A stretch of DNA of 64,000 nt from an uncultured delta proteobacterium (GCA_947259215.1 CAMYLJ010000017.1:67878-131877), one strand, 5' to 3'; positions 21,586 through 34,447 are shown, numbered from the stretch's first letter. The notes: a model not told the origin generated them from the letters alone. Numbers and translations are program-made.

Positions 21586-23217
21586 CTAGGGCGCGTAGAC
21601 GAGCGGTCCGGCTGCGCCGAGCTCGAGCCCGAGGCTCATCCAGACCGCCAGCAGCAGGGTCCAGGCCACGAAGAAGACCAGCGTGTACGGCAGCATCAGC
21701 GCCACCAGGGTGCCGATCCCCGCCCGCGGCACGTACTGCCGCATGAAGACCAGGACGATCACCACGTAGGGGTTCAGCGGCGTGATCACGTTGGAGACGG
21801 AGTCGCCGACGCGGTAGGCGGCCTGCGTCAGCTCGGGGCTGATCCCCACCTGCATGAACATGGGCACGAAGACCGGCGCGAAGAAGGCGTACTTGGCGGA
21901 CATGGAGCCGATGAAGAGGTTCGCCACCACGACCACGGCGACGAAGGCGCTGACCAGGAGTGGGCCGGGCAGGGCGGCGCGGGCGAGGGCCTGGCCGCCG
22001 GTGATGGCCAGCATCTCGCCCAGGCCCGAGTGCTGGAAGTAGGCCACGAACTGGGCGGCGAAGAAGGCCAGCACGATGTACGGGCCCATGCCCGCCATGG
22101 TCTCGCCCAGGAGCTTCGCCACGGTCTTGTCGCTGCGGACGGCGCCCGAGGCGATCCCGTAGGCCAGTCCGGGCACGAAGAAGCCCAGGAAGATGAGCGG
22201 CACCACCGCGCGCACCCAGCGCGGGAAGATCCCGTCCAGGCCGTGGAGCGGTGCACCGGGCACGGTCGTGGCCGCGACCAGGACGCCCCCGGTGACGACG
22301 GCCGCCAGCACGCCGGCGCGCAGTCCGCGCCGCTCTTCCGGGGCCAGGGTGCGCGCCGCGCGCGCGTCCTCGCCGGACAGCGGCGTGGCGCCGCCGTCCT
22401 CGGGTTCGAGCGACCGGTAGCGGGGCTCGACCCACCAGGCCGTGACGGCCCAGCCCACCAGGGTCAGCAGCACGGTGGACACCTGGATGAAGCGCAGGTT
22501 GGCGGTGGCGGCGACCTCGTACTCGGGATCGAGGATCTGCGCGGCGGAGGTGCTGAAGCCCGCCAGCAGCGGCTCCAGCCCGGTGGGCAGCAGGTTGGCG
22601 CTGAAGCCCGCCGACACCCCGGCGAAGACCGCCGCCAGTCCCACCAGGGGCGAGCGGCCCGCGGCCTGGAAGAGCGCCATCGCCACCGGCGGCAGCACCA
22701 CGTAGCCCGCGTCGAGGGCCATGGACGACATGACGCCCACGAAGAAGACGGTGGGTGTGAGCAGGGACGCCGGAACCGCCAGCAGGGTGGCCTTCAGGAG
22801 CGCGCCGATGAAGCCCGTGCGCTCGGCCAGGCCGATCCCGAGCATCCCCACCAGCACGATGGCCAGGGGCGGGAAGTTCTTGAAGTTGTCCACAAGGCTC
22901 GAGATCGCCCAGTAGAGGCCGTCGGACGAGAGCAGGCCGACCGGGTGGACGCTCTCCGTCACGCGCTCGCGTCGCGGCACGCCCGTCGCGGGATCGAGCT
23001 CCGCCACGGTCACGACCTGTCCGCTCGCGGGGTCACGCAGTGGCTCGCCGGCGGCGTCCGTCAGCGGCACCCGCACCTCGCGCGTGATCGTCTTCTCCAC
23101 CTGCCAGTCGCAGGCGACGGCCAGCTGGGAGAGGCCCATCACCGCCAGCGCGCCGATCACGAAGAGGGTGGCGGGGTCGGGCAGCGCGTTCCCGATCCGC
23201 TCGATGCGCTCAAGCAC
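21586..23217 (-). CDS. AbgT-family (p-aminobenzoyl-glutamate type) transporter
   Basis: VLERIERIGNALPDPATLF is a typical AbgT N-terminus, and the protein is polytopic. GTG 23217 is preferred (8-nt overlap with VanZ); GTG 23253 is also possible. Confidence 0.8.
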   Translation of the reverse strand: MLERIERIGNALPDPATLFVIGALAVMGLSQLAVACDWQVEKTITREVRVPLTDAAGEPLRDPASGQVVTVAELDPATGVPRRERVTESVHPVGLLSSDGLYWAISSLVDNFKNFPPLAIVLVGMLGIGLAERTGFIGALLKATLLAVPASLLTPTVFFVGVMSSMALDAGYVVLPPVAMALFQAAGRSPLVGLAAVFAGVSAGFSANLLPTGLEPLLAGFSTSAAQILDPEYEVAATANLRFIQVSTVLLTLVGWAVTAWWVEPRYRSLEPEDGGATPLSGEDARAARTLAPEERRGLRAGVLAAVVTGGVLVAATTVPGAPLHGLDGIFPRWVRAVVPLIFLGFFVPGLAYGIASGAVRSDKTVAKLLGETMAGMGPYIVLAFFAAQFVAYFQHSGLGEMLAITGGQALARAALPGPLLVSAFVAVVVVANLFIGSMSAKYAFFAPVFVPMFMQVGISPELTQAAYRVGDSVSNVITPLNPYVVIVLVFMRQYVPRAGIGTLVALMLPYTLVFFVAWTLLLAVWMSLGLELGAAGPLVYAP

Positions 23218-23686
23218 GCGCGGGCTCCGCAGTCCGCCAGCGCCGCGCCACACGCGTCACCCCCGCCAGGGCGGAGAGTCCGATGGCGCCGCCCACGACG
23301 TCGATCCCCACGTCGCCGGCCGACCCGGTGCGGCTCTCGAGCAGCGCCTGGCGGCCCTCGTCGACCGCGGCGACGCCGGCGACCAGCAGCAGCGCCAGCA
23401 GGGCAGGGCGCACGAGGGCCGACGGCGAGTCGAGCGTCATGGCGTGGAACGCCAGCAGGCCGAGCACCCCGTACTCGATCAGGTGCGCGGCCTTGCGGGT
23501 TACGGAGTGGATCGGCTCGAGGCGGCTCGGGTCGAGATCGGGGAAGAGCGCGCGCAGCAGACCCTCGATCCAGCCCCCTGTGGCATCCGCGGAGAAGTCC
23601 TGGCCGCCGAGCGTCAGGATCAGCGCGGCCCAGAGGGCGACGGCAGTCCAGGCTCGGAGCCTCTGTCCGCGGCTGCTCTCCGCCAT
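23210..23686 (-). CDS. VanZ-family membrane protein
   Basis: RKAAHLIEYGVLGLL, DEGRQ and VVGGAIG motifs. ATG lies 6 nt after a TAGCGT box. Confidence 0.75.
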   Translation of the reverse strand: MAESSRGQRLRAWTAVALWAALILTLGGQDFSADATGGWIEGLLRALFPDLDPSRLEPIHSVTRKAAHLIEYGVLGLLAFHAMTLDSPSALVRPALLALLLVAGVAAVDEGRQALLESRTGSAGDVGIDVVGGAIGLSALAGVTRVARRWRTAEPARA

Positions 23687-23692
23687 CGCGGA

Positions 23693-23698
23693 ACGCTA
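23693..23698 (-). promoter_or_regulatory. -10 element TAGCGT, 6 nt upstream of VanZ ATG 23686 (leaderless candidate)
   Basis: The minus strand reads gcTAGCGTtccgcgATG. It is the mirror image of the 24088 box. Confidence 0.45.
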
Positions 23699-24087
23699 GC
23701 GCCTTGGGGCTGCGGGGTGTGCGGGGTGGTCTCGGTGGGCCGCGGGGCTCCGGTGGGTTCGGCGGGCGGGGGTGGCTCTGACTTATCGTGACTCCGCTCG
23801 GCTTCGCCTCGCTGCGCGCGCCGCCCCGAGCGGCGGCGCTTGCGGCCTCTGCCTCCGGTGCGTGTTCGGTCCCGGTCAGGGCTTGGGGAGGCAGCGTCCC
23901 GCGCGGGCATCGCTCGCAAGCCCTGACCGCCCTCGCCAGCATCACCGGAGGTCGCGGCCGCAAGCCCGCCTCTGGCGGGCGCGCAGCGAGGCGAAGCCGA
24001 GCGGAGTCACGATCAATGAGAGCGCACGGCTCTCGCGAACGCCGCGGAGCCCCGCGGCCAGACGAGACCGCCCCACCCCGAAGCCGC

Positions 24088-24093
24088 TAGCTT
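24088..24093 (+). promoter_or_regulatory. -10 element TAGCTT, 6 nt upstream of ATG 24100 (leaderless candidate)
   Basis: gcTAGCTTccccacATG, with no SD. Confidence 0.45.
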
Positions 24094-24099
24094 CCCCAC

Positions 24100-25101
24100 A
24101 TGCTCCGGATCGGCCTCGTCTACGACCTGCTCGGGACGCATCCGCGGCGGCCCGGGGATCCGCCGGATGCGGATGCGGAGTACGAGCCGGAGGAGACCGT
24201 GCTCGCCCTCGAGGCCGCCGTGCGCCGGGCCGGACACGAGCCGGTGCGGATCGGGAACCCCCAGGAGCTGCTGGCGCGGGCCGGGAAGGGGGAGCTCCCG
24301 CCGCTGGATGCGGCCTGGAACATCGCCGAGGGGTACGGCTCGCGGAACCGGGAGGCCTGGGCCCCGGTGCTGCTGGAAATGCTGCATGTTCAGGCACTTG
24401 GATCGGATGCCCTCACACTTTCTCTCAGCCTGGACAAGGCCTGGTGCAACACCCTGGTCGCGGCCGCCGGGGTCCCGGTTCCGCCCCAGGCGGTGTTCGC
24501 CTCGGCGGCGGATGCGGGGGCTGCTGCGCTTCCCGCCGGCTTCCCGCTCTTCGCCAAGCCGCGCTGGGAGGGAACCGCCAAGGGGATCCACCCGGGCTCG
24601 CGCGTGGAAGACGCGGCCGCGCTCGCGCGCGAGGTGGAGCGCATCGTGCGCGACTATGCGCAGCCGGCTCTGGTGCAGCCGTTCCTGCCCGGTGCGGAGT
24701 ACACGGTGAGCGTCGTGGGGCATCGCCCGCCGCGCGCGCTGCCGGTGCTCCAGCGGGCGCTCGAGGCGGAGTCCGGCATCGGTGTGCACGCGCTGGAGCG
24801 TCAGCCGGCGCCGGCCGGAGGCTGGGGGCATCGCGTTCCGGGGGAGCTCTCGCCGGAGCTCGAGACGACACTCGCCGCCCACGCCTTGACGGCCTGCGAG
24901 GCGCTGGCGTGCCGCGACTTCGCGCGAGTGGACTTCCGCCTGGACGCCGACGGGGCCCCGTGGTTCCTGGAGATCAACCCGCTGCCGACGTTCGCGCCCG
25001 ACGGCTCCTTCGGAATCCTGGCGGAGCTCGAGGGCCGCGCCCTGGAAGACCTGCTGGCGGAGGTGCTCCGGGAGGGGCTCGTCCGGCTGGGGCTCGCGTG
25101 A
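24100..25101 (+). CDS. ATP-grasp ligase (Ddl-like family, not canonical D-Ala-D-Ala ligase)
   Basis: The central and C-terminal ATP-grasp pattern is present (DKAWCNTLVAAAGVPVP, LFAKPRWEGTAKGI, ARVDFRLDADGAPWFLEINPLP). The N-terminus lacks the GG-S-EhevS motif of housekeeping Ddl. Confidence 0.75.
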   Translation: MLRIGLVYDLLGTHPRRPGDPPDADAEYEPEETVLALEAAVRRAGHEPVRIGNPQELLARAGKGELPPLDAAWNIAEGYGSRNREAWAPVLLEMLHVQALGSDALTLSLSLDKAWCNTLVAAAGVPVPPQAVFASAADAGAAALPAGFPLFAKPRWEGTAKGIHPGSRVEDAAALAREVERIVRDYAQPALVQPFLPGAEYTVSVVGHRPPRALPVLQRALEAESGIGVHALERQPAPAGGWGHRVPGELSPELETTLAAHALTACEALACRDFARVDFRLDADGAPWFLEINPLPTFAPDGSFGILAELEGRALEDLLAEVLREGLVRLGLA

Positions 25102-26201
25102 GCGCGCCCGCCGCAGCACCGCGCCCGGACGCGATCGACCCCGCGGACTGGCGCGACTGGCGCTGGCAGATGCAGCAGCGGGTGCGCGACGCGGAGGCGC
25201 TCGGCGCCTGGCTGCGCCCCACGGACGACGAGCGCCGGGCCATCGAGCGCCTGGCCGAGCGCTTCCACTTCGTGATCACGCCGTACTACGCGTCGCTCAT
25301 GGACCCGGACGATCCCGGCTGCCCGATCCGCCGCCAGGTGGTACCCGCCTGCGCGGAGCTCGCGGACCCGGCCGGGCTGGCGGACCCGCTGGACGAGGTG
25401 GCCCACTCGCCGGTGAAGAACGTGGTGCGCGTCTACCCGGACCGGATCGCCTTCTGCGTGAACAACGAGTGCGCGCTCTACTGCCGCTTCTGCCTGCGCA
25501 AACGCATGCTGGGCGAGCCCGAGTGGGCCATGAAGAAGCGCGAGCTGGAGGAGGCGCTGGCCTGGATCCGCCGCACCCCGGAGATCCGGGACGTGCTGCT
25601 CACCGGGGGCGATCCCCTGGTCTTCTCCGACGACAAGCTCGACTGGCTGCTGGGCGAGCTGCGCGCGATTCCGCACGTGGAGCTCCTGCGCCTGGGGACG
25701 CGCCTGCCGGTGACCCTGCCGTTCCGCGTGACCGACGAGCTCTGCCGGGTGCTCGAGCGCCATCACCCGGTCTGGCTGAACACGCACTTCAACCATCCCC
25801 GGGAGCTGACGGCGGAGGCGGCCGAGGCCTGCGAGCGGCTGCTCCGGGCCGGCGTTCCGGTGGGCAACCAGAGCGTGCTGCTGGCCGGGATCAACGACGA
25901 TCCCGAGACGATGCGCGCGCTCTGCGAGGGCCTCGTGCGCATGCGGGTGCGCCCGTACTACTGCTACCAGGCCCAGCTGCTCGAGGGCACCGCCCACTTC
26001 CGCGTCCCCGTCGAGCAGGGCATCGCGCTCTTCAAGGCACTGCGCGGGCGCACCAGCGGCTTCGCCATTCCCCAGTACGTGCTCGACACGCCCCACGGCA
26101 AGGTGCCCCTGGCGCATCCCTGGTGGCGCGGGCGAGACGGGGACGACGTGCTGGTGGAGACGCCGGACGGCCGGGTCTGGCGCGAGCCCAATCCCCTATG
26201 A
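25098..26201 (+). CDS. KamA-family radical SAM aminomutase (lysine 2,3-aminomutase / EpmB-like)
   Basis: CALYCRFCLRK (CxxxCxxC), VLLTGGDPL, NTHFNHPRE and GVPVGNQSVLLAGIND. GTGA overlap with the ATP-grasp gene. Confidence 0.85.
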   Translation: MSAPAAAPRPDAIDPADWRDWRWQMQQRVRDAEALGAWLRPTDDERRAIERLAERFHFVITPYYASLMDPDDPGCPIRRQVVPACAELADPAGLADPLDEVAHSPVKNVVRVYPDRIAFCVNNECALYCRFCLRKRMLGEPEWAMKKRELEEALAWIRRTPEIRDVLLTGGDPLVFSDDKLDWLLGELRAIPHVELLRLGTRLPVTLPFRVTDELCRVLERHHPVWLNTHFNHPRELTAEAAEACERLLRAGVPVGNQSVLLAGINDDPETMRALCEGLVRMRVRPYYCYQAQLLEGTAHFRVPVEQGIALFKALRGRTSGFAIPQYVLDTPHGKVPLAHPWWRGRDGDDVLVETPDGRVWREPNPL

Positions 26202-26219
26202 TCCCCGGCGGGGGATCCG

Positions 26220-27770
26220 GTGAGCGAAGACGGGGGAGGCCAAGGGCGCCGGCTCGGTGCCGCGGCGCTGATCCTGGCGGCGAGCGTGGCCCTGTCGCGC
26301 GTCATCGGGTACGTGCGCGAGGCCGTGCTGGCCAAGCAGGTGGGCGCCGGCGCGGCCATGGACGCCTACCGCGCCGCCTTCACCCTGCCGGACCTGCTGA
26401 ACCACCTGCTGGCGGGCGGCGCGCTCGCCATCGCGTTCATCCCCCTCTACACGCGAGCGCGGGAGGAGCGGGGGGAGCCTGCGGCGGAACGGCTGCTGGC
26501 CACGGTGCTCGGCACCCTGGGCGTGCTGGCGGTGCTCTTGACCGCGGCCATGTGGCTGCTGGCGGAGCCGCTGGTGGCGCTCCAGTTCGGCGGCTTCCCG
26601 CCGGAGGTGCAGGCCCTGACGGTGCGGCTCACGCGCATCGTGCTCCCCGCGCAGATCTTCTTCGTGACCGGCGGCATCGTGCGGGCGGCGCTGATGGCGC
26701 ACGGCCGCTTCGGTGCCCAGGCCCTGGCGCCGCTCGTCTACAACGTCTGCATCATCGGCTTCGGTCTCGTCCTGGGCGAGCGCCACGGGGTGGTGGGCTT
26801 CGCCTGGGGAGCGCTGGTGGGAGCCGTGCTCGGGCCGTTCCTGATCGCCCTCCTCGACGCCATGCGGACCCTGAAGATCCGGCTGCGCGTGGCGCCCGCG
26901 GACCGCGAGTTCCTGGCCTATCTGGTGGTGGCGCTGCCGCTGATGATCGGCGTCTCGCTCCTCACGGTGGATGAGTGGTACGAGCGCTGGCTCGGTGACG
27001 CGCTGGGCGAGGGTGTGATCGCGCGCCTGGGCTACGCGCGCCAGCTCATGCTCGTGCCCGTGGCGGTGGTGGGGCAGGCCATCGCGGCGGCGGCGCTGCC
27101 CGCGTTCTCGCGTCTCTTCTCCGCCGGCCGGCGCGAGGAGCTGGACCGGCTGCTGCTGCGCACGCTCCAGATCGCCCTGGCCCTGGCGGTACTTTCGGCG
27201 GCGGCTGCCTTCTCCGTGGCGACGCCGCTGGTGCGGGTCCTGTTCGAGCGCGGCGCCTTCACGCCCGAGGACACGCGGGTCGTGGCGCGCCTGCTCGAGA
27301 TCTTCTGCTTCGCCGTTCCGGCCTGGGTCGTGCAGCAGGTCGCCGCCCGCGCCTTCTTCGCTCGCGGCGACACCTGGCGCCCGATGCTGCTCGGGACCGG
27401 CCTCGCGCTGCTCGCGATTCCCCTCTATCTGACGCTCGGCGATCGCGCCGGGGCCGCGGGACTGGCCGCGGCCGGCGCCCTGGCGATGAGCGCCAACGCG
27501 CTGGCGACCCTGCTGCTGGCTCGGCGTCTGCACGGTGCGCCGGACCTGGGGGCCCTGGCCGGAACCGGGCTGCGCGCCCTCGCGGTGGCTGCGCCCGCGT
27601 GCGTGGCCGCGGTCCTGGCCCAGCTCGGCGCGGGCGGCACCTGGGGCGACCTGGCGGACCTGGCGCTGGCCGGCATCGGCTTCGGTCTGGTAGCGCTCGT
27701 CGGCATCCGGCTCGTCGGGGACGCCGCCATGCGGGAGGCGCTCCGGCGCGTGATACGCTCCCGGGCATGA
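26220..27770 (+). CDS. murJ: Lipid II flippase MurJ (MviN)
   Basis: LSRVIGYVREAVLAKQVGAGAAMDAYRAAFTLPDLL is a typical MurJ N-terminus. About 14 TM helices, 516 aa. Confidence 0.85.
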   Translation: MSEDGGGQGRRLGAAALILAASVALSRVIGYVREAVLAKQVGAGAAMDAYRAAFTLPDLLNHLLAGGALAIAFIPLYTRAREERGEPAAERLLATVLGTLGVLAVLLTAAMWLLAEPLVALQFGGFPPEVQALTVRLTRIVLPAQIFFVTGGIVRAALMAHGRFGAQALAPLVYNVCIIGFGLVLGERHGVVGFAWGALVGAVLGPFLIALLDAMRTLKIRLRVAPADREFLAYLVVALPLMIGVSLLTVDEWYERWLGDALGEGVIARLGYARQLMLVPVAVVGQAIAAAALPAFSRLFSAGRREELDRLLLRTLQIALALAVLSAAAAFSVATPLVRVLFERGAFTPEDTRVVARLLEIFCFAVPAWVVQQVAARAFFARGDTWRPMLLGTGLALLAIPLYLTLGDRAGAAGLAAAGALAMSANALATLLLARRLHGAPDLGALAGTGLRALAVAAPACVAAVLAQLGAGGTWGDLADLALAGIGFGLVALVGIRLVGDAAMREALRRVIRSRA

Positions 27771-29667
27771 GCACCCTCTTCGGACCCGAACGGCTGGCCG
27801 GGCAGGGCCTCGACCCCGATCAGGAGGAGTCGGGCAACCGCGCCATCTACGCCCTGCTGACCGATCCTGGCACCGGCGACAAGGTGGACCTCGTCCTCAC
27901 CTGGCGCGGCGACGCCGAGGGCGGCGCCTACGAAGCCTGGTCGTCCCGGGGCATGCTGCGCTTCCGCCGCAGCCTGGATGCGGACGGCGCCTTCGCGTTC
28001 GAGGTGCTCGAGGTGGTGGGCGAGAACCCGGTGGGCGAGCAGGACGTCTTCGCCCTGGGAAGCCAGGAGGAGGAGCGGGCAGCCGCGCGCGCGGGCGGCT
28101 TCGACGCCGACGACCCGACGAAGCGCTTCATCGCGCCGGCCCAGCAGAGCTACCCCTTCGCGTACGAGCGCATTGCCCAGCTCTTCGACTCGCCGAATGC
28201 GCCGGATCTGGCGGTGTCGCCGGTGGACTGGGCCCAGGGGCCCTACGCGGGCAACCACGGTGCGCTCCACGTGCGTCAGTCGCGGGCGCCGCTCTGGCTG
28301 GCGGGTCCCGGAGTTCGCCCGGGCCGCCACCCGCTCGCGGCGCGCTCCGTCGACATCGCTCCCACGATCCTGGCGGCGTGCGGCTTTCCCGCCATCGACG
28401 GCGCCGACCACAGCGGGCGCAGCGCGAGCGAGCGCGGCGTCTCCCCCGACGTGCTGCTGAAGCGCCAGGACGGCCGCCCGCTGGACGAGGTGCTCGACCG
28501 GGACGCGACGCCGGCCGTGCGCGCCTACCTCTTCCTGCTGGACGGCCTGCACATGACGGAGCTCGAGTCGCGGCTGGCGGAGGAGCCCGAGCGCTACCCG
28601 AACCTGCTGCGCCTGCGCGAGCAGGCGGCGGTGCTGGCGGGCGGCTCCATCGTGAACTTCCCCTCCATCACCTGGCCGAGCCACACGTCCATCGGCACCG
28701 GCAGCTGGTGCGGCCACCACGACGTGGTGAACCCGAGCTACTACCTGCGCGAGAAGCGGGAGACCGTCTCGCCCCAGGGCCAGCAGGTGAAGACCGAGGG
28801 CTTCTCGAGCGAGCGCGTCGAGTCCATCTACGAGGCCTTCCGGCGCGTGCGCGGCAAGGACTCGCTGACCGCGGCCATCTACGCGCCCTTCGGGCGCGGC
28901 GCCGACCACGCCGCCCTGGAGGACCGCAACCTGTGCGAGCGCCCGCGGCTGAAGGCGCTGACGGCCGAGCTCTGAGCTCCGAGGCCGCCAGTCTCGACAA
29001 CCGGGGCGTGGCCCAGGTGATCGAGCTCTTCACCTGTGACGAGCGCCCGCCGCCGGACTTCGTCTACCACGAGCTGATCCTGACCGACGGCGTGGGCCAC
29101 GACTACGGCCCGCACTCGGACGGCCTGGGCGACGCGCTGGAAGAGGGAGACCGCCGCATCGGCCGCGTGCTCGACCTGCTGGAGCAGTGCGGCCTGTACG
29201 ACGAGACCTTCTTCGTCGTCTCCGCCGACCACGGCATGGCCCCCCAGGACCGCGACTCCCAGGAGAACGCCATCCGCAAGATCCGGGACGACGGCCTGGC
29301 CTGCGTGGTGGCGGAGCCGATGCTCTGGCTGCTGGACGTGCGCGTCGAGGTGGAGCGCTCGGCGGACGGCCGCACGGGCCGCGTGCGCGTATGGGAGAAC
29401 GACGCCCTCCCGACCGGCGAGCGCCCCGAGGTGGAGGACGCCGAGGTGCGCGTGGAGCTCCACCGCGAGGGCCAGGAGCCCGAGCTCCTGGCCGCGGGTC
29501 GGACGGGCCCCGGCGGCGTCTACGGCTTCCCGACCCCGCCCGAAGCCGACACCGAGCACATCGCCGTCTCGGTCCGCGCGGAGGGCTTCAATCCCCGCCA
29601 CCTCTTGCTCGACGGCACATCGCTGGCGCTGGACCTGCGCCGGGTCCTCTACGGAGACGGAGCCTGA
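27767..29667 (+). pseudogene. Alkaline-phosphatase-superfamily (NPP-type) phosphodiesterase interrupted by a frame change near 28970
   Basis: ORF A (27767-28975, ATGA overlap with murJ) carries LLDGLHM and FPSITWPSHTSIGTG, the metal Asp and Thr nucleophile. ORF B (a different frame, open from before 28975 to 29667) carries TDGVGHDYGPHS and VVSADHGM. One fold is therefore split over two frames. This could be a real pseudogene or a 1-nt assembly error. Confidence 0.55.
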
Positions 29668-29705
29668 CGAGCTTCGCGGCGGTCCCAGGGGGGCCCCTTC
29701 TCGAA

Positions 29706-30833
29706 ATGAGCCGCGAACTGCGCGAAGAGCCCCTGGAACTCTCGGTCTCCGTGATTCACCGGTTGCGCAGGGCGGCCAGCAGCAACCCGGACGTGGAGAG
29801 TCGCCTGGATCAGGGCTACGTGGCCATCGATCATCACATGCGCCAAGGCCAGCGCACGGTCTCGTGGTACCGGGGCCCGCTGATTTCCGGCGGGCTCGTA
29901 TCGCCACCGGAACAGGAGCTGGCGGTTCCGGTTTCCGACCGGCTTCTCATTTATGATCCGGAAAACGGAATGCTCGACGTGACCTATGCGGCCGCCTGGG
30001 AGATCGGCCGCTTGCTGACGCTGCAGAGCAAGGCGCCGCCGTTCGCTGCCGATGGAATCCAGCTGCCCGAGTATCCGGCGGATGCCAAGCAGTGGTCTGC
30101 CGATCTCATGCTCATGAAGCCGCTGCCGTTCCACTACCTCGTGCCTCACGAAAGGATGCTGCCTCCCGGCTCGATCCGCTTCTTTCGGGTCGATGCACGT
30201 TGGGTCGAGTGCATGCTGGGTGGCGCGTCGAGCGTGGGTCGTGCGACATCGGGCGGTGGTCGACAGGATTCCGGCCATCGCGGAGGGGTCGCAACGAAGC
30301 CGCCGGTTTGCAGCGGTTTCATCCTGCGCTCCCCCGTGGTCACTCGGTGGCCGAACCTGCAGGTTGATGCGTACTCCGAGGCGGTTCCACCAGGCAGCGC
30401 GGCCGACCACGTTCCGGCGCAGCAGACAGCAACCGTTTTGCGCAAGGAACGGCTTGGCGAGGAAGTCCTGATCTGTCTCTTCGAAGGCCAGATTCAGACG
30501 GTCGACATCCACGAGCATGCCGAGGCGATTCCCTTCGGAGTGGAGGTCGACCCGAATCCCGATGACCTTTCGAAGTACTACGGGGCGCTCCGCAAACTGG
30601 ACGGTTCGCTGGGCGGCGTCTACACGAGATTTACCGCCGACAACATCCTCATGCGACGCGCCGCAGGTTCGAGGGAACTGGAGAACGACCCGCAGGAGCT
30701 CGACGTGCAGGCACTGGCGCAGGGGCCGGAGCATCCCCTCGGGAGTTCGGCCGAACCCGGCGTTGCCATGATCGAGGGCGTGGAGAAGGTCCGGTTTCTG
30801 ATCCAGAGCCGGGGGGCGCCGCGCGAGTCGTAG
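29706..30833 (+). CDS. Hypothetical protein (375 aa) in a low-GC island
   Basis: The frame is consistent but codon usage is foreign (GAA, GAT, ATT, TTT and TAT are frequent). Motifs WYRGPL, YAAAWEIGRLLTL, LPFHYLVPHERMLPPGSIRFFRVD and SGFILRSPVVTRWPNLQV look like a conserved family that I cannot name. Confidence 0.6.
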   Translation: MSRELREEPLELSVSVIHRLRRAASSNPDVESRLDQGYVAIDHHMRQGQRTVSWYRGPLISGGLVSPPEQELAVPVSDRLLIYDPENGMLDVTYAAAWEIGRLLTLQSKAPPFAADGIQLPEYPADAKQWSADLMLMKPLPFHYLVPHERMLPPGSIRFFRVDARWVECMLGGASSVGRATSGGGRQDSGHRGGVATKPPVCSGFILRSPVVTRWPNLQVDAYSEAVPPGSAADHVPAQQTATVLRKERLGEEVLICLFEGQIQTVDIHEHAEAIPFGVEVDPNPDDLSKYYGALRKLDGSLGGVYTRFTADNILMRRAAGSRELENDPQELDVQALAQGPEHPLGSSAEPGVAMIEGVEKVRFLIQSRGAPRES

Positions 30834-30853
30834 GCGAGCGAGGCCATGAAGTC

Positions 30854-33800
30854 ATGATCTGGCGCTTCTGGGTCGACCGCGGTGGCACGTTCACCGACTG
30901 CATCGGCCTCGCGCCCGACGGCGTCCTGCACACCGCCAAGGTCCTCTCCTCCGACACGGCACCCGTCGAGGGCATTCGCAGCGTCCTCGAGCGCGCGGAC
31001 GAAGTCGCACCCGGCGCGCGGCTGCCGGCGTCTTCGGTCAAGCTCGGGACCACGGTCGCCACCAACGCCCTGCTCGAGCGCCGCGGGGAGCGCACGCTGC
31101 TGGTGACGAACCGGGGGCTGGCCGACGTGCTGGAGATCGGGACCCAGGAGCGGCCCGCGCTCTTCGAGCTCTGCATCCGGAAGGCGCCGCCGCTCCACGA
31201 GCGGGCGCTCGAGGTGGATGCGAGGGTCGCGGTGGACGGCGAGGTGCTGGCGGAGCTGGACGAGGAGGCACTGCGCGCTGCCCTGCGCGAGGCGCGCGCG
31301 TCGGGAATCGACTCACTGGCCGTCTGCCTGATCCACGCCTACGCCTACCCCGAGGCGGAGGCGCGGATCTGCGCCATCGGGCGCGAGGAGGGCTTCGCGC
31401 ACGTGACGGCCTCCCACGCCGTGGCGCGGGAGATCGGGCTGCTGGCCCGCGGCGAGACGACCACGGCCGACGCCTACCTGACGCCGCTCCTGCGCCGGCA
31501 CGCGGAGCACCTGGACGCCGCGCTCCCGGGCTCGACCTTGCGCTTCATGCAGTCGTCGGGTGGCCTGACCGACGCCGCCCACTTCCGCGGCCCGAACGCC
31601 CTGCTGTCCGGTCCGGCCGGTGGCGTGGTGGGGGCGGCGGAGGTCGCGCGGGGCGCCGGCTTCCCGCGCGCCGTCGGCTTCGACATGGGCGGCACCTCGA
31701 CGGACGTGTCGCTGCTGGTGGAGGGCGAGGTCGAGCGCGGCTTCGAGACCCTGGTGGCGGGCGTGCGCGTGAAGGCGCCCATGCTGCGCATCCACACCGT
31801 GGCGGCGGGCGGGGGCTCTCTCTGCCGCTACGACGGCTTCCGCTTCACGGTCGGCCCCGAGAGCGCCGGCGCCGACCCCGGGCCGCTCTGCTACGGGCGC
31901 CGCGACGCCGACGGTCGCCCCGCGGCCAGCGAGCTGGCGCTGACCGACGTGAACCTCTTCCTCGGCCGGCTGCACGCGGAGCGCTTCCCGTTCCTCCTGG
32001 AGAGCGAGCCCGTGGCGCGCCGCATGCACGAGGTGCAGGCGGAGCTCCGCGCGGCGGGACACGACCTGTCGCCCGAGGCCGTGGCCGCGGGCTTCGTCGA
32101 GGTGGCGAATGCCAGCATGGCTCAGGCCATCCAGGAGGTGTCGGTGGTGCGCGGGGTCGACCCGCGCGAGTGCGCGCTCGTCGGCTTCGGCGGCGCCGGC
32201 GGACAGCACGTCTGCGCCATCGCCCGGCGGCTCGGCATGCGCCAGGTACTGCTCCACCCGCTGGCGGGCCTGCTCTCGGCCTACGGGATCGGGATCGCGC
32301 CCGAGAGCTGGGACGGACAGCGCGACGCGGGCCGGGTGGCGCTGCCCCACCAGGGCGTGCCGGATGCGGTGGAGCGCTCGTTCGGGGCGCTCGAGGCGGA
32401 GGGTCGGGAGGCCCTGGCCACCGTCAGCGTGTCGGGCGACGCGGTCGCCGTGGAGCGCCGGCTCGACCTCCGCTACGCCGGCACCGAGACCGCCCTCGCC
32501 GTGCGAGACCCGGGGGACGGCGACTGGGAGCGCGCCTTCGCGGCCGAGCACGCCGCCCGCTTCGGCTATACGCGTCCCGGCCGGCCCATCGAGATCTCCA
32601 CCGCGCGCGTGCGGGTGCGCGCCGCCAGCGACGTTCCGGCCGCGGCGCCGCCCGATGTGGGACGCGCGCACGCTGCGGCGGACCGCACGGTCCACGCCTG
32701 GTTTCCCGACGTGGGGCGGGTGGACGTGCCGCTCGTCGCGCGCGAGTCGCTGGCTCCGGGCGATCTGCTGGAGGGCCCCGCTGTGGTGCTCGAGGACACG
32801 GGCACGGTGGTCGTCGATCCGGGCTTCCGCGGGCGGGTCCTGGAGGACGGGACGCTGCTCCTCACGGACGAGGCCGGCGCGCCGGCCCACGCCGCCGCGG
32901 CTGGCGATCTGGAGCGCCCCGATCCCATCCGGCTCGAGGTCTTCGGCAACCGCTTCATGTCCATCGCCGAGCAGATGGGCGGCGTGCTCCGCAACACGTC
33001 CGTGTCCACCAACATCAAGGAGCGCCTCGACTACTCGTGTGCGGTCTTCGACGCCGACGGCGGACTGGTGGCCAACGCGCCGCACATCCCGGTGCACCTG
33101 GGCGCCATGGGCGAGACGGTGCGCGCCGTGCGCGCGCGCTTCCCGGACCTGGCGCCGGGCGACGTGGTGGTCACCAACGACCCCTTCGAGGGCGGCTCCC
33201 ACCTGCCCGACGTGACGGTCGTGACGCCAGTCTTCGCGGAGGGCGAGGCGGGGCCCGCGTTCTTCGTCGCGAGCCGCGGCCACCACGCCGACATCGGCGG
33301 CAAGACCCCGGGCTCCATGCCCCCCGACTCGCGCTCCCTGGATGAGGAGGGCGTCGTGATCCGGCCGCGCCGGCTGGTGCAGGAGGGCCGCCTGGACGAC
33401 GCGGGCCTGCGCGCGCTGCTCACGAGCGGCCCGTATCCGGCGCGGAGCCCGGACGACAACCTGGCCGACCTCGAGGCCATGGTGGCCGCCAACCGCGCGG
33501 GCGAGCGCCTGGTGCTGGAGATGTGCCGCGACCAGGGCCTGCGCGCCGTGCAGGTCAGCATGCGCCAGCTCCAGCAGGCCGCCGCGGGCAAGGTGGCGCG
33601 GGAGATCGGCAAGCTCGCCGACGGCGAGCACGTCTTCGAGGATCGCCTGGACGACGGCAGCCCCGTGTGTGTGCGCCTGAGCGTGGCCGGCGAGCGCATG
33701 ACGATCGACTTCGCCGGCACGGGCGCGGCACTGCCGGGCAACCTGAACGCGCCGCGCGCCGTGGTGCACGCCGCGGTGATCTACGTGCTCCGCGCTCTCG

Positions 33801-34447
33801 TGGCCGAGCGCATCCCGCTGAACGGCGGCTGCCTCGAGCCCGTGACGATCCGGATTCCCGAGGGCTCGCTCCTGGATCCGCCGCCGGGCTCGGCGGTGGT
33901 GGGGGGCAACGTGGAGACTTCCCAGCGCGTGGTGGACGTGCTGCTCGGCGCCCTCGGCCGGGTGGCCGCCAGCCAGGGCACCATGAACAATGTCACCTTC
34001 GGCACTCCGCGCTTCGGCTACTACGAGACCCTCGGCGGGGGCGCGGGAGCCGGGGAGGGGTGCCCCGGCGCGTCGGCCGTCCACACCCACATGACCAACA
34101 CGCGCATCACCGACGCCGAGGTGCTGGAGGAGCGCTACCCGGTGCGCCTGGAGACCTTCGCCCTCCGCCGCGGTTCCGGCGGGGCGGGGCGCTTCCCCGG
34201 CGGCGAGGGCCTCGTGCGCCGCTGGCGCTTCCTCGAGCCGGCCACGCTCTCGTTGCTCAGCGAGCGCCGCGTGCGCGCGCCATGGGGCCTCGCGGGCGGC
34301 GCGGACGGCGCGCCCGGCCGCAACGCCGTCGAGCGCGCCGACGGCCGCGTGGAGGAGCTTCCGGGCAAGGCCAGCGCCGAGGTGGCGCCGGGCGACGCGC
34401 TGGTGGTCGAGACACCGGGCGGCGGCGGCTGGGGCGCGCCGACCTGA
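30854..34447 (+). CDS. Fused hydantoinase A/B family enzyme (5-oxoprolinase-like, ATP-hydrolysing)
   Basis: 1197 aa. [14 protein letters not shown] forms the N-terminus. A HyuA-like half is followed by a HyuB-like half ([24 protein letters not shown]). Confidence 0.9.

Follow-up and report, generated by a model that had tools for sequence, protein, structure and literature searches.

An ATP-grasp ligase gene and a KamA-family aminomutase gene, adjacent in the 64-kb window (the whole stretch of DNA analysed, 64,000 nucleotides), form a conserved pair that we interpret, with a probability of roughly 0.55, as a two-enzyme module which makes a beta-amino acid and ligates it. The initial annotation had treated these genes as the first half of a translationally coupled four-gene operon, the other members being genes for the lipid II flippase MurJ and a phosphodiesterase. 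As a functional unit, the four-gene operon is not sustained by the comparison of related genomes, in which MurJ accompanies the pair only within the Myxococcota lineage and the phosphodiesterase gene is present in 9 of 24 MurJ loci. Only the genes for the ATP-grasp ligase and KamA make up the functional unit.

Organization of the locus

Analysis of third-position GC by frame indicates same-strand coding from position 24100 onward, and Pfam and NCBIfam models identify Dala_Dala_lig_C, radical SAM/LAM_C (KamA family), MurJ and type I phosphodiesterase. The features of the locus are as follows.

21589-23253, minus strand: AbgT-family transporter (PF03806), behind the VanZ-like gene
23213-23686, minus strand: VanZ-like membrane protein (PF04892), divergent from the ATP-grasp gene
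24100-25101, plus strand: Ddl-fold ATP-grasp ligase gene, 333 aa, exact full-length database match; first part of the core
25098-26201, plus strand: KamA-family radical-SAM/PLP 2,3-aminomutase gene, 367 aa, GTG start; second part of the core
26200-26217, plus strand: small hairpin GATCCCC-GGCG-GGGGATC, read from the sequence, extending over the KamA stop and the KamA-MurJ gap
26220-27770, plus strand: MurJ lipid II flippase gene, 516 aa (TIGR01695, PF03023)
27767-28975, plus strand: type I phosphodiesterase/nucleotide pyrophosphatase-like protein, N-terminal fragment in frame A, 402 aa, ending in TGA (PF01663 positions 3-81)
~28975-29667, plus strand: C-terminal part of the same phosphodiesterase in frame B (PF01663 positions 141-250)
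30854-34447, plus strand: fused HyuA/HyuB hydantoinase/5-oxoprolinase-family protein, 1197 aa (Hydant_A_N, Hydantoinase_A, Hydantoinase_B)

The 333-, 367- and 516-aa products of the ATP-grasp, KamA and MurJ genes each match a database protein exactly over the full length. The three junctions described initially are all present in the sequence, namely GTGA at 25098-25101, where the GTG start of KamA overlaps the TGA stop of the ATP-grasp gene, the 18-nt gap (26202-26219) following the KamA stop at 26199-26201, and ATGA at 27767-27770, where MurJ and the phosphodiesterase gene overlap. Bacterial genes on the same strand often overlap by 1 or 4 nt at start and stop, which points to an operon and is statistically nothing unusual.

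The fourth gene is broken. The interval 27767-29667 comprises 1901 nt, a length not divisible by three, and the frame plot displays a phase switch near 28900-28975, with the frame change near 28973 and the junction located in GAGCTCtGAGCTC (28967-28979). Homologues are single ORFs of ~640-673 aa which carry ~15 extra codons exactly at this junction. In the window the PF01663 domain is split over two frames, with ~15 codons deleted relative to the homologues. Pseudogenization, a split gene or an error in the assembly could each account for the two parts. The description of the phosphodiesterase as envelope-type is likewise unfounded, given its patchy occurrence, the frameshift and an N-terminus which, in a translation read by eye, looks unlike a signal peptide.

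Conservation and fusion of the gene pair

The neighbourhood survey covered 56 genome loci from Myxococcota, Rhodothermales and Balneolales encoding an ATP-grasp protein at least 45% identical to that of the window. KamA is located downstream on the same strand in 48 of them, starting at most ~400 nt from the ATP-grasp stop in 45 pairs and 0.8-2.4 kb away in the other three. Viewed from the aminomutase, the ATP-grasp gene is found at 23 of 26 loci encoding a KamA-family protein with Gln at position 293 (numbering of lysine 2,3-aminomutase, LAM), versus 8 of 50 loci of the Asp293 type (Fisher p = 7e-10, phylogeny ignored); these adjacency counts are from related genomes and hence represent non-independent events. 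Orthologues of the ATP-grasp gene without an adjacent KamA are encoded in L007 and in L008, L010 and L011, in the last three of which it comes after murB. Neither a riboswitch nor any other informative regulator was detected.

Furthermore, the two enzymes occur as natural fusions. Locus L091 contains a 701-aa ORF joining PF07478, PF04055 and PF12544, and proteins of 699-770 aa with both the ligase and the aminomutase domains, drawn from JGI, ENA and NCBI, make up at least 18 distinct clusters at 90% identity. These clusters display 48-87% identity and include a Rhodothermales-like form (P0409) as well as a third lineage (P0469), all of them with Gln293. From adjacency across phyla, translational coupling and repeated fusion into one polypeptide, the ligase and the aminomutase are shown, on genomic grounds, to act together; the pairing singled out initially thus represents a real conserved functional unit.

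A distinct clade of KamA-family aminomutases

Membership of the aminomutase in the KamA family is clear from its score against TIGR00238 (332.9 bits, cutoff 199.2) and from its alignment with the LAM of C. subterminale (2A5H; 45% identity, E 5e-110), in which the CxxxCxxC Fe-S cysteines C125/C129/C132, the alpha-carboxylate arginine R134 and the PLP lysine K337 (LAM numbering) are aligned and conserved. Every substrate-specific model, however, gives a score under its cutoff: glutamate 2,3-aminomutase, the best-scoring of them (TIGR04368, 447.6 bits vs 650), AblA/KamA (TIGR03820, 431.1 vs 525.4), arginine 2,3-aminomutase (TIGR04468, 405.5 vs 600) and EpmB (TIGR03821, 241.4 vs 369.3). The phylogenetic position, left to be settled by the initial annotation, is that of a separate clade without clustering with EpmB: in a neighbour-joining tree with EpmB as the outgroup, the clade is monophyletic and set apart from AblA/KamA, BlsG and EpmB. 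All ~55 clade members carry A292-Q293. Collectively, scores, tree and active-site residues place the homologue outside AblA, EpmB, BlsG and glutamate 2,3-aminomutase.

Specific identities were considered and rejected in turn. Lysine 2,3-aminomutase AblA/KamA is disfavoured by the score, the separate clade and the Gln at position 293 (D330 is kept), and EpmB by the score, by being the most distant in the tree and by the lack of efp in the 64-kb window or in any of ~90 loci. Glutamate and arginine 2,3-aminomutases fail on their scores, and BlsG has D293/T330 compared with Q293/D330 in the clade. Since the clade invariably has Gln in place of LAM Asp293, with Asp330 kept, classical binding of lysine is improbable, and the substrate is probably something other than lysine bound in that way. 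The amino acid used may have a side chain that is polar, singly cationic or an amide; the retained Asp330 equivalent would be unfavourable to an acidic one.

A Ddl-fold ligase with a divergent second-substrate region

The initial claim that the ligase lacks the Ddl N-terminal motif is supported: PF07478 is the only Ddl domain detected, PF01820 is absent, and the protein scores under the cutoffs of all Ddl and Van models (best Ddl NCBIfam score 95.3 bits, cutoff 243). An AF2 model (pLDDT 95) has the three-domain ATP-grasp fold, and its top Foldseek matches are the D-alanine-D-alanine ligases DdlB and DdlA (TM 0.77-0.82, 21-25% identity). The ATP, Mg and acyl-phosphate residues expected of a Ddl are in place, as equivalents of E. 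coli DdlB K97, K144, E180, R255, D257, E270 and N272. The D-Ala subsite (the E15/S150/Y216 triad, K215 and S281/L282), in contrast, is retained only in its E15 and S150 equivalents; the omega-loop K215/Y216 is missing and the S281/L282 positions are variable (D/S/G and T/S/D). DdlB His63 and Glu68 are replaced by Glu and Arg, respectively, inside an invariant family-specific RNRE motif. A weak match to Pfam TTL was also recorded (E 1e-4). No second Ddl-like sequence was detected within the 64-kb window. Judged by its motifs and model scores, the ligase is a member of an 'RNRE' subfamily and not an orthologous Ddl. Database sources annotate the family as D-alanine-D-alanine ligase.

Lineage-specific neighbours

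The MurJ of the window scores above the equivalog cutoff of TIGR01695 (269.8 bits vs 235.55; PF03023 E 1.7e-75). Its gene accompanies 27 of 45 pairs, all in the Myxococcota lineage, and none of the 18 Rhodothermales-type pairs; it is missing next to the pair of L121, and 60%-identical orthologues stand alone, without the pair, in L089 and L090. This MurJ is of the housekeeping type, co-transcribed here and outside the conserved core.

The HyuA/HyuB protein is recognized by its three Pfam domains (E down to 1e-202) and scores far under the cutoffs of the caprolactamase and acetophenone-carboxylase models. Its gene lies downstream in 15 of 24 MurJ loci of the Myxococcota lineage, overlaps the MurJ stop in L002 and L091, directly follows KamA, without MurJ, in L121, and is missing from the Rhodothermales pairs. 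MurJ, the broken phosphodiesterase and the oxoprolinase-family enzyme are lineage-specific neighbours and not obligatory parts of the module.

Upstream, a VanZ-like gene is encoded on the opposite strand at a distance of ~400-630 nt in 22 Myxococcota-type loci, and is also found in L091. CstA and AbgT transporters are located upstream as well, AbgT being present in 10 related loci, while an NhaC-family transporter is encoded in 5 Salinibacter-type loci and MscS in L069. The nearby AbgT, NhaC-family and MscS transporters are compatible with a small-molecule product. In relatives, tig-clpP-clpX-lon comes next after the block, an arrangement suggestive of conserved housekeeping synteny. The recurrent VanZ, MurJ and murB neighbours of the Myxococcota lineage are unexplained by a purely cytoplasmic metabolite.

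Proposed function and alternatives

In the favoured reading, the KamA-family enzyme would use its [4Fe-4S] cluster and SAM, the PLP lysine and the alpha-carboxylate arginine to shift the alpha-amino group of a free L-amino acid onto its beta carbon, a step that we infer from family membership and the conserved catalytic residues. The Ddl-fold ligase would then activate a carboxylate as an acyl phosphate and form an amide bond involving this beta-amino acid, yielding a small beta-aminoacyl dipeptide or pseudopeptide. The order could also be reversed, with the ligase acting first and the aminomutase then acting on a side-chain-modified amino acid.

A link of the pair to the cell envelope is possible in view of its VanZ, MurJ and murB neighbours. 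Cell-wall remodelling in the strict sense, in which the ligase makes an alternative dipeptide (such as D-Ala-beta-X, in analogy to VanA) or attaches a beta-amino acid to a peptidoglycan precursor and MurJ flips the modified lipid II, appears unlikely. The ligase does keep the E15, S150 and R255 equivalents of DdlB and is changed exactly at the second-substrate elements K215/Y216 and S281/L282; the 27 loci with downstream MurJ and the 22 with a divergent VanZ-like gene point the same way, as do the orthologues placed straight after murB in L008, L010 and L011, an independent rearrangement, and that of L007, which still adjoins MurJ though KamA is missing. However, the MurJ, VanZ and murB associations all come from one lineage, the 18 Rhodothermales-type pairs and that of L121 dispense with MurJ, and the flippase passes its housekeeping cutoff and has solitary orthologues. 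Moreover, the cluster is devoid of a Mur ligase, transpeptidase or D,D-peptidase, and the tig-clpP-clpX-lon block suggests that synteny here is of the housekeeping kind. A more elaborate version is decidedly doubtful: the Gln293-type mutase would yield a beta-amino acid new as a natural 2,3-aminomutase product, the ligase would build it into an alternative peptidoglycan-precursor dipeptide or side chain in a VanA-like manner, MurJ would export the result, and the divergent VanZ-like protein would belong to the same envelope-protection system.

It is very unlikely that the pair, the oxoprolinase/caprolactamase-family enzyme and the transporters form a salvage or catabolic module processing an imported beta-amino acid, lactam or dipeptide. 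Aminomutases catalyse reversible reactions and take part in lysine fermentation, and the position of the HyuA/HyuB gene (downstream in 15 of 24 loci, directly after the pair in L121) and the AbgT and CstA genes upstream would fit such a role; yet an ATP-consuming ligase is atypical of catabolism, the hydantoinase-family gene is absent from the Rhodothermales pairs, and the vicinity lacks any conserved beta-amino-acid dehydrogenase or transaminase.

Still less probable is protein modification, whereby the ligase would put a beta-amino acid on a protein in the manner of EF-P or of RimK/TTL, replacing EpmA/EpmB. The KamA relative EpmB feeds such a reaction, the ligase has the weak TTL match, and a KamA-family gene of Leptospira lies ~3 kb from efp. 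Against this, the tree separates the homologue of the window widely from EpmB, whose model gives it 241 bits where 369 are required, efp is absent from the window and the ~90 loci, the nearest fold is Ddl, with small-molecule substrates, and not RimK, and no candidate substrate protein is conserved nearby. Finally, we consider it scarcely credible that the ATP-grasp protein is a divergent housekeeping D-Ala-D-Ala ligase whose adjacency to KamA is functionally meaningless: the source annotations, the Ddl fold with its catalytic core and the murB adjacency in three MAGs favour it, but the score of 95 bits against 243, the lack of PF01820, the unconserved K215/Y216 and S281/L282, the restriction of the family to few lineages, and its strong and specific association with Gln293-type KamA tell against it, and the recurrent KamA fusions would be hard to account for in this way.

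Comparison with known systems

The proposed module of aminomutase and ligase shares elements with several known systems, and the initial statement that no characterised pathway of this kind is known was too strong, given that the blasticidin S cluster has a 2,3-aminomutase near an ATP-dependent carboxylate-amine ligase. In that cluster ~1.2 kb and an aminotransferase gene separate the gene of the arginine 2,3-aminomutase BlsG from that of the ligase. In blasticidin S biosynthesis the ligase couples beta-arginine to the nucleoside. BlsG differs from the clade described here in residues 293/330 (D/T vs Q/D) and in its separate tree branch, and bls serves antibiotic production in an actinomycete and includes many tailoring genes, whereas the present module is a minimal two-gene one, found across phyla in a housekeeping-type context. 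Further cases of an aminomutase gene adjacent to that of an ATP-dependent ligase are found on a Thioflavicoccus plasmid and a Rhizobium plasmid.

The N-epsilon-acetyl-beta-lysine pathway (KamA/AblA with AblB) employs an aminomutase of the same family and fold, with the Fe-S cysteines, R134 and PLP K337 in common, and likewise encodes the mutase adjacent to a tailoring enzyme. Its partner, however, is a GNAT rather than an ATP-grasp ligase, and relative to KamA/AblA the homologue studied here has LAM Asp293 replaced by the invariant Gln, Cys292 by Ala and Cys268 by Asp, is ~50 residues shorter and falls in a separate clade. EpmB and EpmA, responsible for EF-P beta-lysylation, also combine a KamA-family mutase with an ATP-dependent ligase which it supplies, although of the relatives examined EpmB is the most remote (34% identity) and EpmA has a LysRS-like fold, as opposed to the ATP-grasp fold of the ligase here, near which no efp is encoded. 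Glutamate 2,3-aminomutase provides the best substrate-specific model, yet one that the homologue misses by far (447.6 bits vs 650); an enzyme of this specificity with Lys at LAM position 293 and Asn at position 330 was reportedly described by Ruzicka and Frey in 2007, and the clade has Gln and Asp there.

Ddl/VanA-type ligases have in common with the present one the three-domain fold, the ATP/Mg and acyl-phosphate residues and the E15/S150/R255 equivalents; they differ in overall sequence (21-25% identity) and in K215/Y216 and S281/L282, which are replaced here. Free dipeptides are the products of two other kinds of ATP-grasp enzyme, carnosine synthase (ATPGD1) and the bacterial L-amino-acid ligases, and the acyl donor of carnosine synthase is itself a beta-amino acid, beta-alanine. 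The abstract of PMC3407494 mentions ATPGD1. The ligase studied here has no specific sequence relationship to these enzymes beyond the ATP-grasp superfamily and, unlike in the carnosine synthase case, its beta-amino acid would come from a dedicated radical-SAM mutase.

Gene organization of the locus

Raw open reading frame lists are unreliable at the G+C content of the window (~73%), and real frames were therefore located by codon-position GC, which traces an unbroken run of plus-strand genes from 24100 onward. The features considered here are the following:

24100-25101, +, ATP-grasp ligase of the Ddl fold, 333 aa (codon-position GC, Pfam, NCBIfam)
25098-26201, +, KamA-family aminomutase, 367 aa; its GTG start and the TGA of the gene before it share GTGA
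26220-27770, +, MurJ, 516 aa, GTG start (Pfam, NCBIfam)
27767-27770, +, start of the phosphodiesterase gene; its ATG overlaps the MurJ stop as ATGA
~29706-30833, +, orfX, 375 aa, with lower third-position GC (~0.8)
30854-34447, +, oxoprolinase-family gene (HyuA/HyuB fusion)

The first three proteins have exact full-length database matches, and the domain assignments of all four products up to the phosphodiesterase are supported by Pfam and NCBIfam. The initial annotation described a translationally coupled chain of four genes; the three junctions are correct, but the fourth gene is broken. The 18-nt gap between the KamA and MurJ genes holds a hairpin (26200-26217; 7-bp stem and 4-nt loop, GATCCCC GGCG GGGGATC) that extends across the stop codon of KamA and the purine-rich segment preceding the MurJ start and might modulate MurJ translation.

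The ligase-aminomutase pair is the conserved unit

Genomes, one per species, were scanned with a nine-sequence alignment of ATP-grasp homologues, and the resulting 80 loci were searched with the window proteins by targeted tblastn and GC3-filtered gene calls. Among the 56 loci with an ATP-grasp protein at least 45% identical and sufficient downstream sequence, 48 carry KamA downstream on the same strand. In 45 of these 48, KamA starts no more than ~400 nt from the ATP-grasp stop, in many cases with an overlap; in the other three the distance is 0.8-2.4 kb. The loci come from uncultured Myxococcota (some bins being labelled otherwise), Rhodothermales (Salinibacter, Rhodothermus, Roseithermus, Longibacter) and Balneolales. 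A MurJ gene lies behind 27 of 45 pairs, all of them in the Myxococcota lineage, and behind none of the 18 Rhodothermales-type pairs; of 24 MurJ-containing loci, 9 also carry the phosphodiesterase gene and 15 the oxoprolinase-family gene. In one metagenomic locus (L121, 2991-8695), the pair is followed directly by the oxoprolinase-family gene without MurJ. MurJ orthologues that reach the 60% identity seen within the cluster occur without the pair in a Binatia MAG and on a further contig of 466 kb, and the window MurJ scores above the NCBI equivalog cutoff for the housekeeping flippase. Since MurJ and the phosphodiesterase vary across loci and MurJ orthologues occur alone, the conserved unit is the pair and not a four-gene operon. 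The unusual partnership reported initially is real; MurJ and the phosphodiesterase are linked to it only locally.

Several loci depart from the common arrangement. In L007 (8001-14172), the order is ATP-grasp-MurJ-oxoprolinase with KamA cleanly absent, so that L007 and L121 represent natural 'deletion variants' of the cluster, KamA-less and MurJ-less, respectively. In five loci, four of them distinct (L001/L068, L004, L006 and L013), the gene at the MurJ position is just 31-33% identical to the window MurJ, and the flanking ATP-grasp and KamA proteins are still 68-82% identical to their window counterparts, which suggests that a different member of the MurJ family has been substituted in place. 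In three soil MAGs labelled Rokubacteria (L008, 6521-9008; L010, 6597-9008; L011), an ATP-grasp orthologue with 67% identity directly follows murB, with KamA absent nearby; the next gene encodes an amidase in L008 and a GNAT in L010. Rhodothermales pairs have a conserved protein with two transmembrane segments downstream, and in Salinibacter an NhaC-family transporter is encoded upstream. A conserved exporter downstream in Rhodothermales was considered and rejected: the 440-506-aa product is the protein with two transmembrane segments, carrying a cytoplasmic domain and having no Pfam match.

A distinct clade of 2,3-aminomutases

The KamA homologue is 45% identical to the crystallised lysine 2,3-aminomutase (LAM) of Clostridium subterminale (2A5H). 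It passes the general KamA-family model (332.9 vs cutoff 199.2) and fails all substrate-specific models (score/cutoff: Glu 447.6/650, AblA 431/525, Arg 405/600, EpmB 241/369). For comparison in LAM numbering, we used reference sequences from annotated records, namely Cytobacillus AblA (adjoining ablB), Kitasatospora BlsG (from the bls cluster), Escherichia coli EpmB (adjoining efp) and Deinococcus radiodurans KamA. The three Fe-S cysteines, Arg134 and the PLP lysine are retained, as is Asp330, whereas Cys292-Asp293 of LAM is replaced by Ala292-Gln293 in all ~55 ligase-linked members. In LAM, Asp293 and Asp330 together bind the lysine epsilon-ammonium group. In a neighbour-joining tree, the Gln293 sequences form one clade, apart from LAM/AblA and BlsG and distant from EpmB, with which no firm clustering was seen. 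The reciprocal scan of metagenome contigs, starting from KamA, placed an ATP-grasp gene next to it in 23 of 26 Gln293-type vs 8 of 50 Asp293-type loci (Fisher p = 7e-10, for loci that are phylogenetically related).

Nor is the homologue an ordinary lysine aminomutase. Retention of Asp330 argues against a substrate with an acidic side chain, and Gln293 suggests a polar group, an amide or a single charge, or else a side chain of lysine or ornithine that is already modified. To our knowledge, KamA-family enzymes with proven substrates are few, the substrates being lysine, arginine and glutamate.

A Ddl-fold ligase with a remodelled second-substrate site

The ligase family comprises 362 clusters at 50% identity (E ≤ 1e-30). 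The Pfam match of the window protein is confined to the C-terminal Ddl domain, and the best Ddl model yields 95 bits vs a cutoff of 243. Its AlphaFold model is confident (pLDDT 95) and superposes over its full length on Ddl structures (TM 0.77-0.82, 21-25% identity). The N-terminal Ddl motif initially described as missing is indeed missing at the Pfam and motif level, but the protein still has an N-terminal domain, including its key Glu. Aligned to E. coli DdlB, the ligase keeps the nucleotide, Mg and acyl-phosphate residues along with the equivalents of Glu15, Ser150 and Arg255, but not the omega-loop Lys215/Tyr216 or Ser281/Leu282; an invariant E-G-x-x-x-R-N-R-E motif (RNRE) takes the place of the His63...Glu68 loop. 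The ligase is not an orthologous Ddl but a paralogue within the Ddl superfamily whose second-substrate site is remodelled. Seven of its positions co-vary with KamA type (E29/D, H230/Y, A231/S, T297/G, F298/L and others) and, because none alters charge, they give no clue to the substrate.

Natural fusions and the proposed pathway

In locus L091, the ATP-grasp, radical-SAM and LAM_C domains reside in a single 701-aa open reading frame. A database search with this fusion recovered at least 18 distinct 90%-identity clusters of 699-770 aa containing both domains, 48-87% identical to the query and originating from JGI, ENA and NCBI assemblies. Among them are Myxococcota-type fusions, one Rhodothermales-like fusion (protein cluster P0409) and a third, linker-less lineage (P0469); P0393 is a further natural fusion. 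Fusions so far diverged are unlikely to be sequencing artefacts, and their existence argues that the two enzymes cooperate, possibly as a complex.

The best-supported reading, to which we assign a probability of roughly 0.55, is a two-step module in which the mutase would generate a beta-amino acid and the ligase would then join it through an amide bond, via an acyl phosphate, to give a small dipeptide-like product. The main rival is the envelope role put forward initially, ligation of a beta-amino acid for the cell envelope. It draws on the Myxococcota lineage, in which a divergent VanZ-like gene lies beside the pair in 22 loci and MurJ lies downstream, on the relocation of the ATP-grasp orthologue to a position directly after murB in three KamA-less MAGs, and on L007, which keeps ATP-grasp-MurJ though KamA is missing. 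However, the VanZ, MurJ and murB associations are limited to one lineage, MurJ is of the housekeeping type, the block carrying the pair and MurJ continues into tig-clpP-clpX-lon, and Rhodothermales pairs instead have the protein with two transmembrane segments downstream and, in Salinibacter, the NhaC-family transporter upstream; we consider this role unlikely. Protein modification is less likely, with no efp nearby and a mutase distant from EpmB, as is the notion that the ATP-grasp protein is merely a divergent Ddl, against which the natural KamA fusions speak. Salvage together with the oxoprolinase/caprolactamase-family enzyme is also less likely. A separate, speculative chemical idea is that the adjoining HyuA/HyuB-family lactam hydrolase could recycle lactams, the by-products that arise when activated gamma-glutamyl or beta-lysyl intermediates cyclise.

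Putative local rearrangements in the window

The span of the phosphodiesterase gene (27767-29667) is not divisible by three, and the codon-position GC frame plot shifts phase at ~28900-28975. The domain is divided between a 402-aa open reading frame ending at the TGA at 28973-28975 and a second frame reaching 29667. Homologues in related loci are single open reading frames of ~640-673 aa, and ~15 codons present in all of them are missing exactly at the break: the homologue in L018, one such locus, has ...RLKALTQERAAEASPRWQADGEKSVIDESVLDGRG... here, and the window sequence gives ...RLKALTAEL* and then, in the other frame, SSEAASLDNRG, the frame change lying at GAGCTCtGAGCTC (28967-28979). The split and the missing codons mark the gene as a pseudogene or a split gene, unless the assembly is in error here; the break at 28960-28985 could reflect a deletion between short repeats or, again, misassembly. 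The designation 'envelope-type' found no support; judged by eye from the translation, the N-terminus does not resemble a signal peptide. Also by eye, the N-terminal ~250 aa (27767-28500) show GNHG...PLWLAGPG...DIAPTIL, motifs characteristic of the C-terminal portion of enzymes with the alkaline-phosphatase fold, before the regular PF01663 core, which suggests a partial duplication or permuted architecture.

Beyond the broken gene, ~1.2 kb (29667-30853) separates the phosphodiesterase and oxoprolinase-family genes. This stretch is not found in related loci, and the two genes are only 26 nt apart in L018. It contains orfX, which has no match in Pfam, NCBIfam, PHROGs or PADLOC, and looks like an insertion beside the broken gene.

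Upstream of the pair, the entire intergenic region between the VanZ-like and ATP-grasp genes (23723-24074) consists of a single nested inverted repeat whose arms measure 45, 39, 23 and 13 nt and which ends 26 nt before the ATP-grasp ATG. It folds as a ~350-nt hairpin (MFE -298.7 kcal/mol vs -207 for shuffled sequence, z = -15.6) and occurs once in the window. Since related loci have merely ~75 nt at this position, it resembles an insertion of a foldback or MITE-like element, which must affect the operon promoter or 5′ UTR. An exact 28-nt arm has no match in metagenome contigs. A substrate-revealing riboswitch or leader was sought in 23500-24200 with no Rfam match at E ≤ 1, and a promoter and terminator scan of this 73% GC DNA gave no informative signal.

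Implications and related systems

The pair forms a two-enzyme module that is widespread and mis-annotated and that stands out by its active-site change and its natural fusions. The pipeline names 'D-alanine-D-alanine ligase' and 'lysine 2,3-aminomutase' are probably both wrong, and the annotation of both genes needs correction. The Asp293-to-Gln replacement, invariant in a monophyletic clade, points to radical-SAM 2,3-aminomutases with a new substrate or a new mode of binding, and the tight coupling and repeated fusion to a dedicated Ddl-fold ligase point to an undescribed beta-amino-acid dipeptide or pseudopeptide. Should the product be part of the cell wall, it would represent a new kind of peptidoglycan chemistry; if it is a soluble metabolite, a new compound class, possibly a stress solute. 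Besides widespread uncultured Myxococcota, the module is present in cultivable Salinibacter, Roseithermus and Rhodothermus relatives and is therefore directly testable. Complete genomes with the pair include CP030158.1, OZ245817.1, OZ245002.1 and AP024675.1.

A full-text literature search returned no characterised pathway combining KamA with a Ddl-like ATP-grasp enzyme, although an earlier in-silico mention may exist. In Leptospira interrogans chromosome II (L094, 548-5041), a KamA-family gene (Asp293/Asp330, His290), with hypothetical genes downstream, lies ~3 kb from efp, possibly representing a non-EpmA EF-P modification system.

Distant orthologues of the ligase (36-40% identity) occur in Omnitrophota, Acidobacteriota, Dehalococcoidales/Chloroflexota and Gemmataceae (e.g., L071, L076-L083), where they adjoin KamA genes with the canonical Asp293/Asp330 lysine signature. 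A second, different ATP-grasp protein without the RNRE motif is usually present, as exemplified by L083 (6659-10473), and five Dehalococcoidales/Chloroflexota loci also encode a small GNAT (161 aa); fused double ATP-grasps of 675-697 aa exist as well (P0126, P0130). This combination of Asp293-type KamA with RNRE and second ATP-grasp proteins is a different cluster, likewise uncharacterised. Plasmid pTHIMO01 of Thioflavicoccus mobilis (L092, 3938-9029) carries a canonical-type KamA gene with a Ddl-like ATP-grasp gene whose product is 30% identical to the window ligase and lacks the RNRE motif; with its ornithine cyclodeaminase/SbnB-like, SbnA and EctB-like/diaminobutyrate transaminase neighbours, the cluster looks like a small diamino-acid peptide pathway. 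On a Rhizobium plasmid, KamA is paired with a biotin-carboxylase-like ATP-grasp protein, and in the blasticidin cluster an ATP-dependent carboxylate-amine ligase is encoded ~1.2 kb downstream of BlsG, with an aminotransferase gene in between. Together, these pairings indicate that '2,3-aminomutase plus ATP-dependent ligase' is a recurring design, of which the Gln293/RNRE pair is one uncharacterised version.
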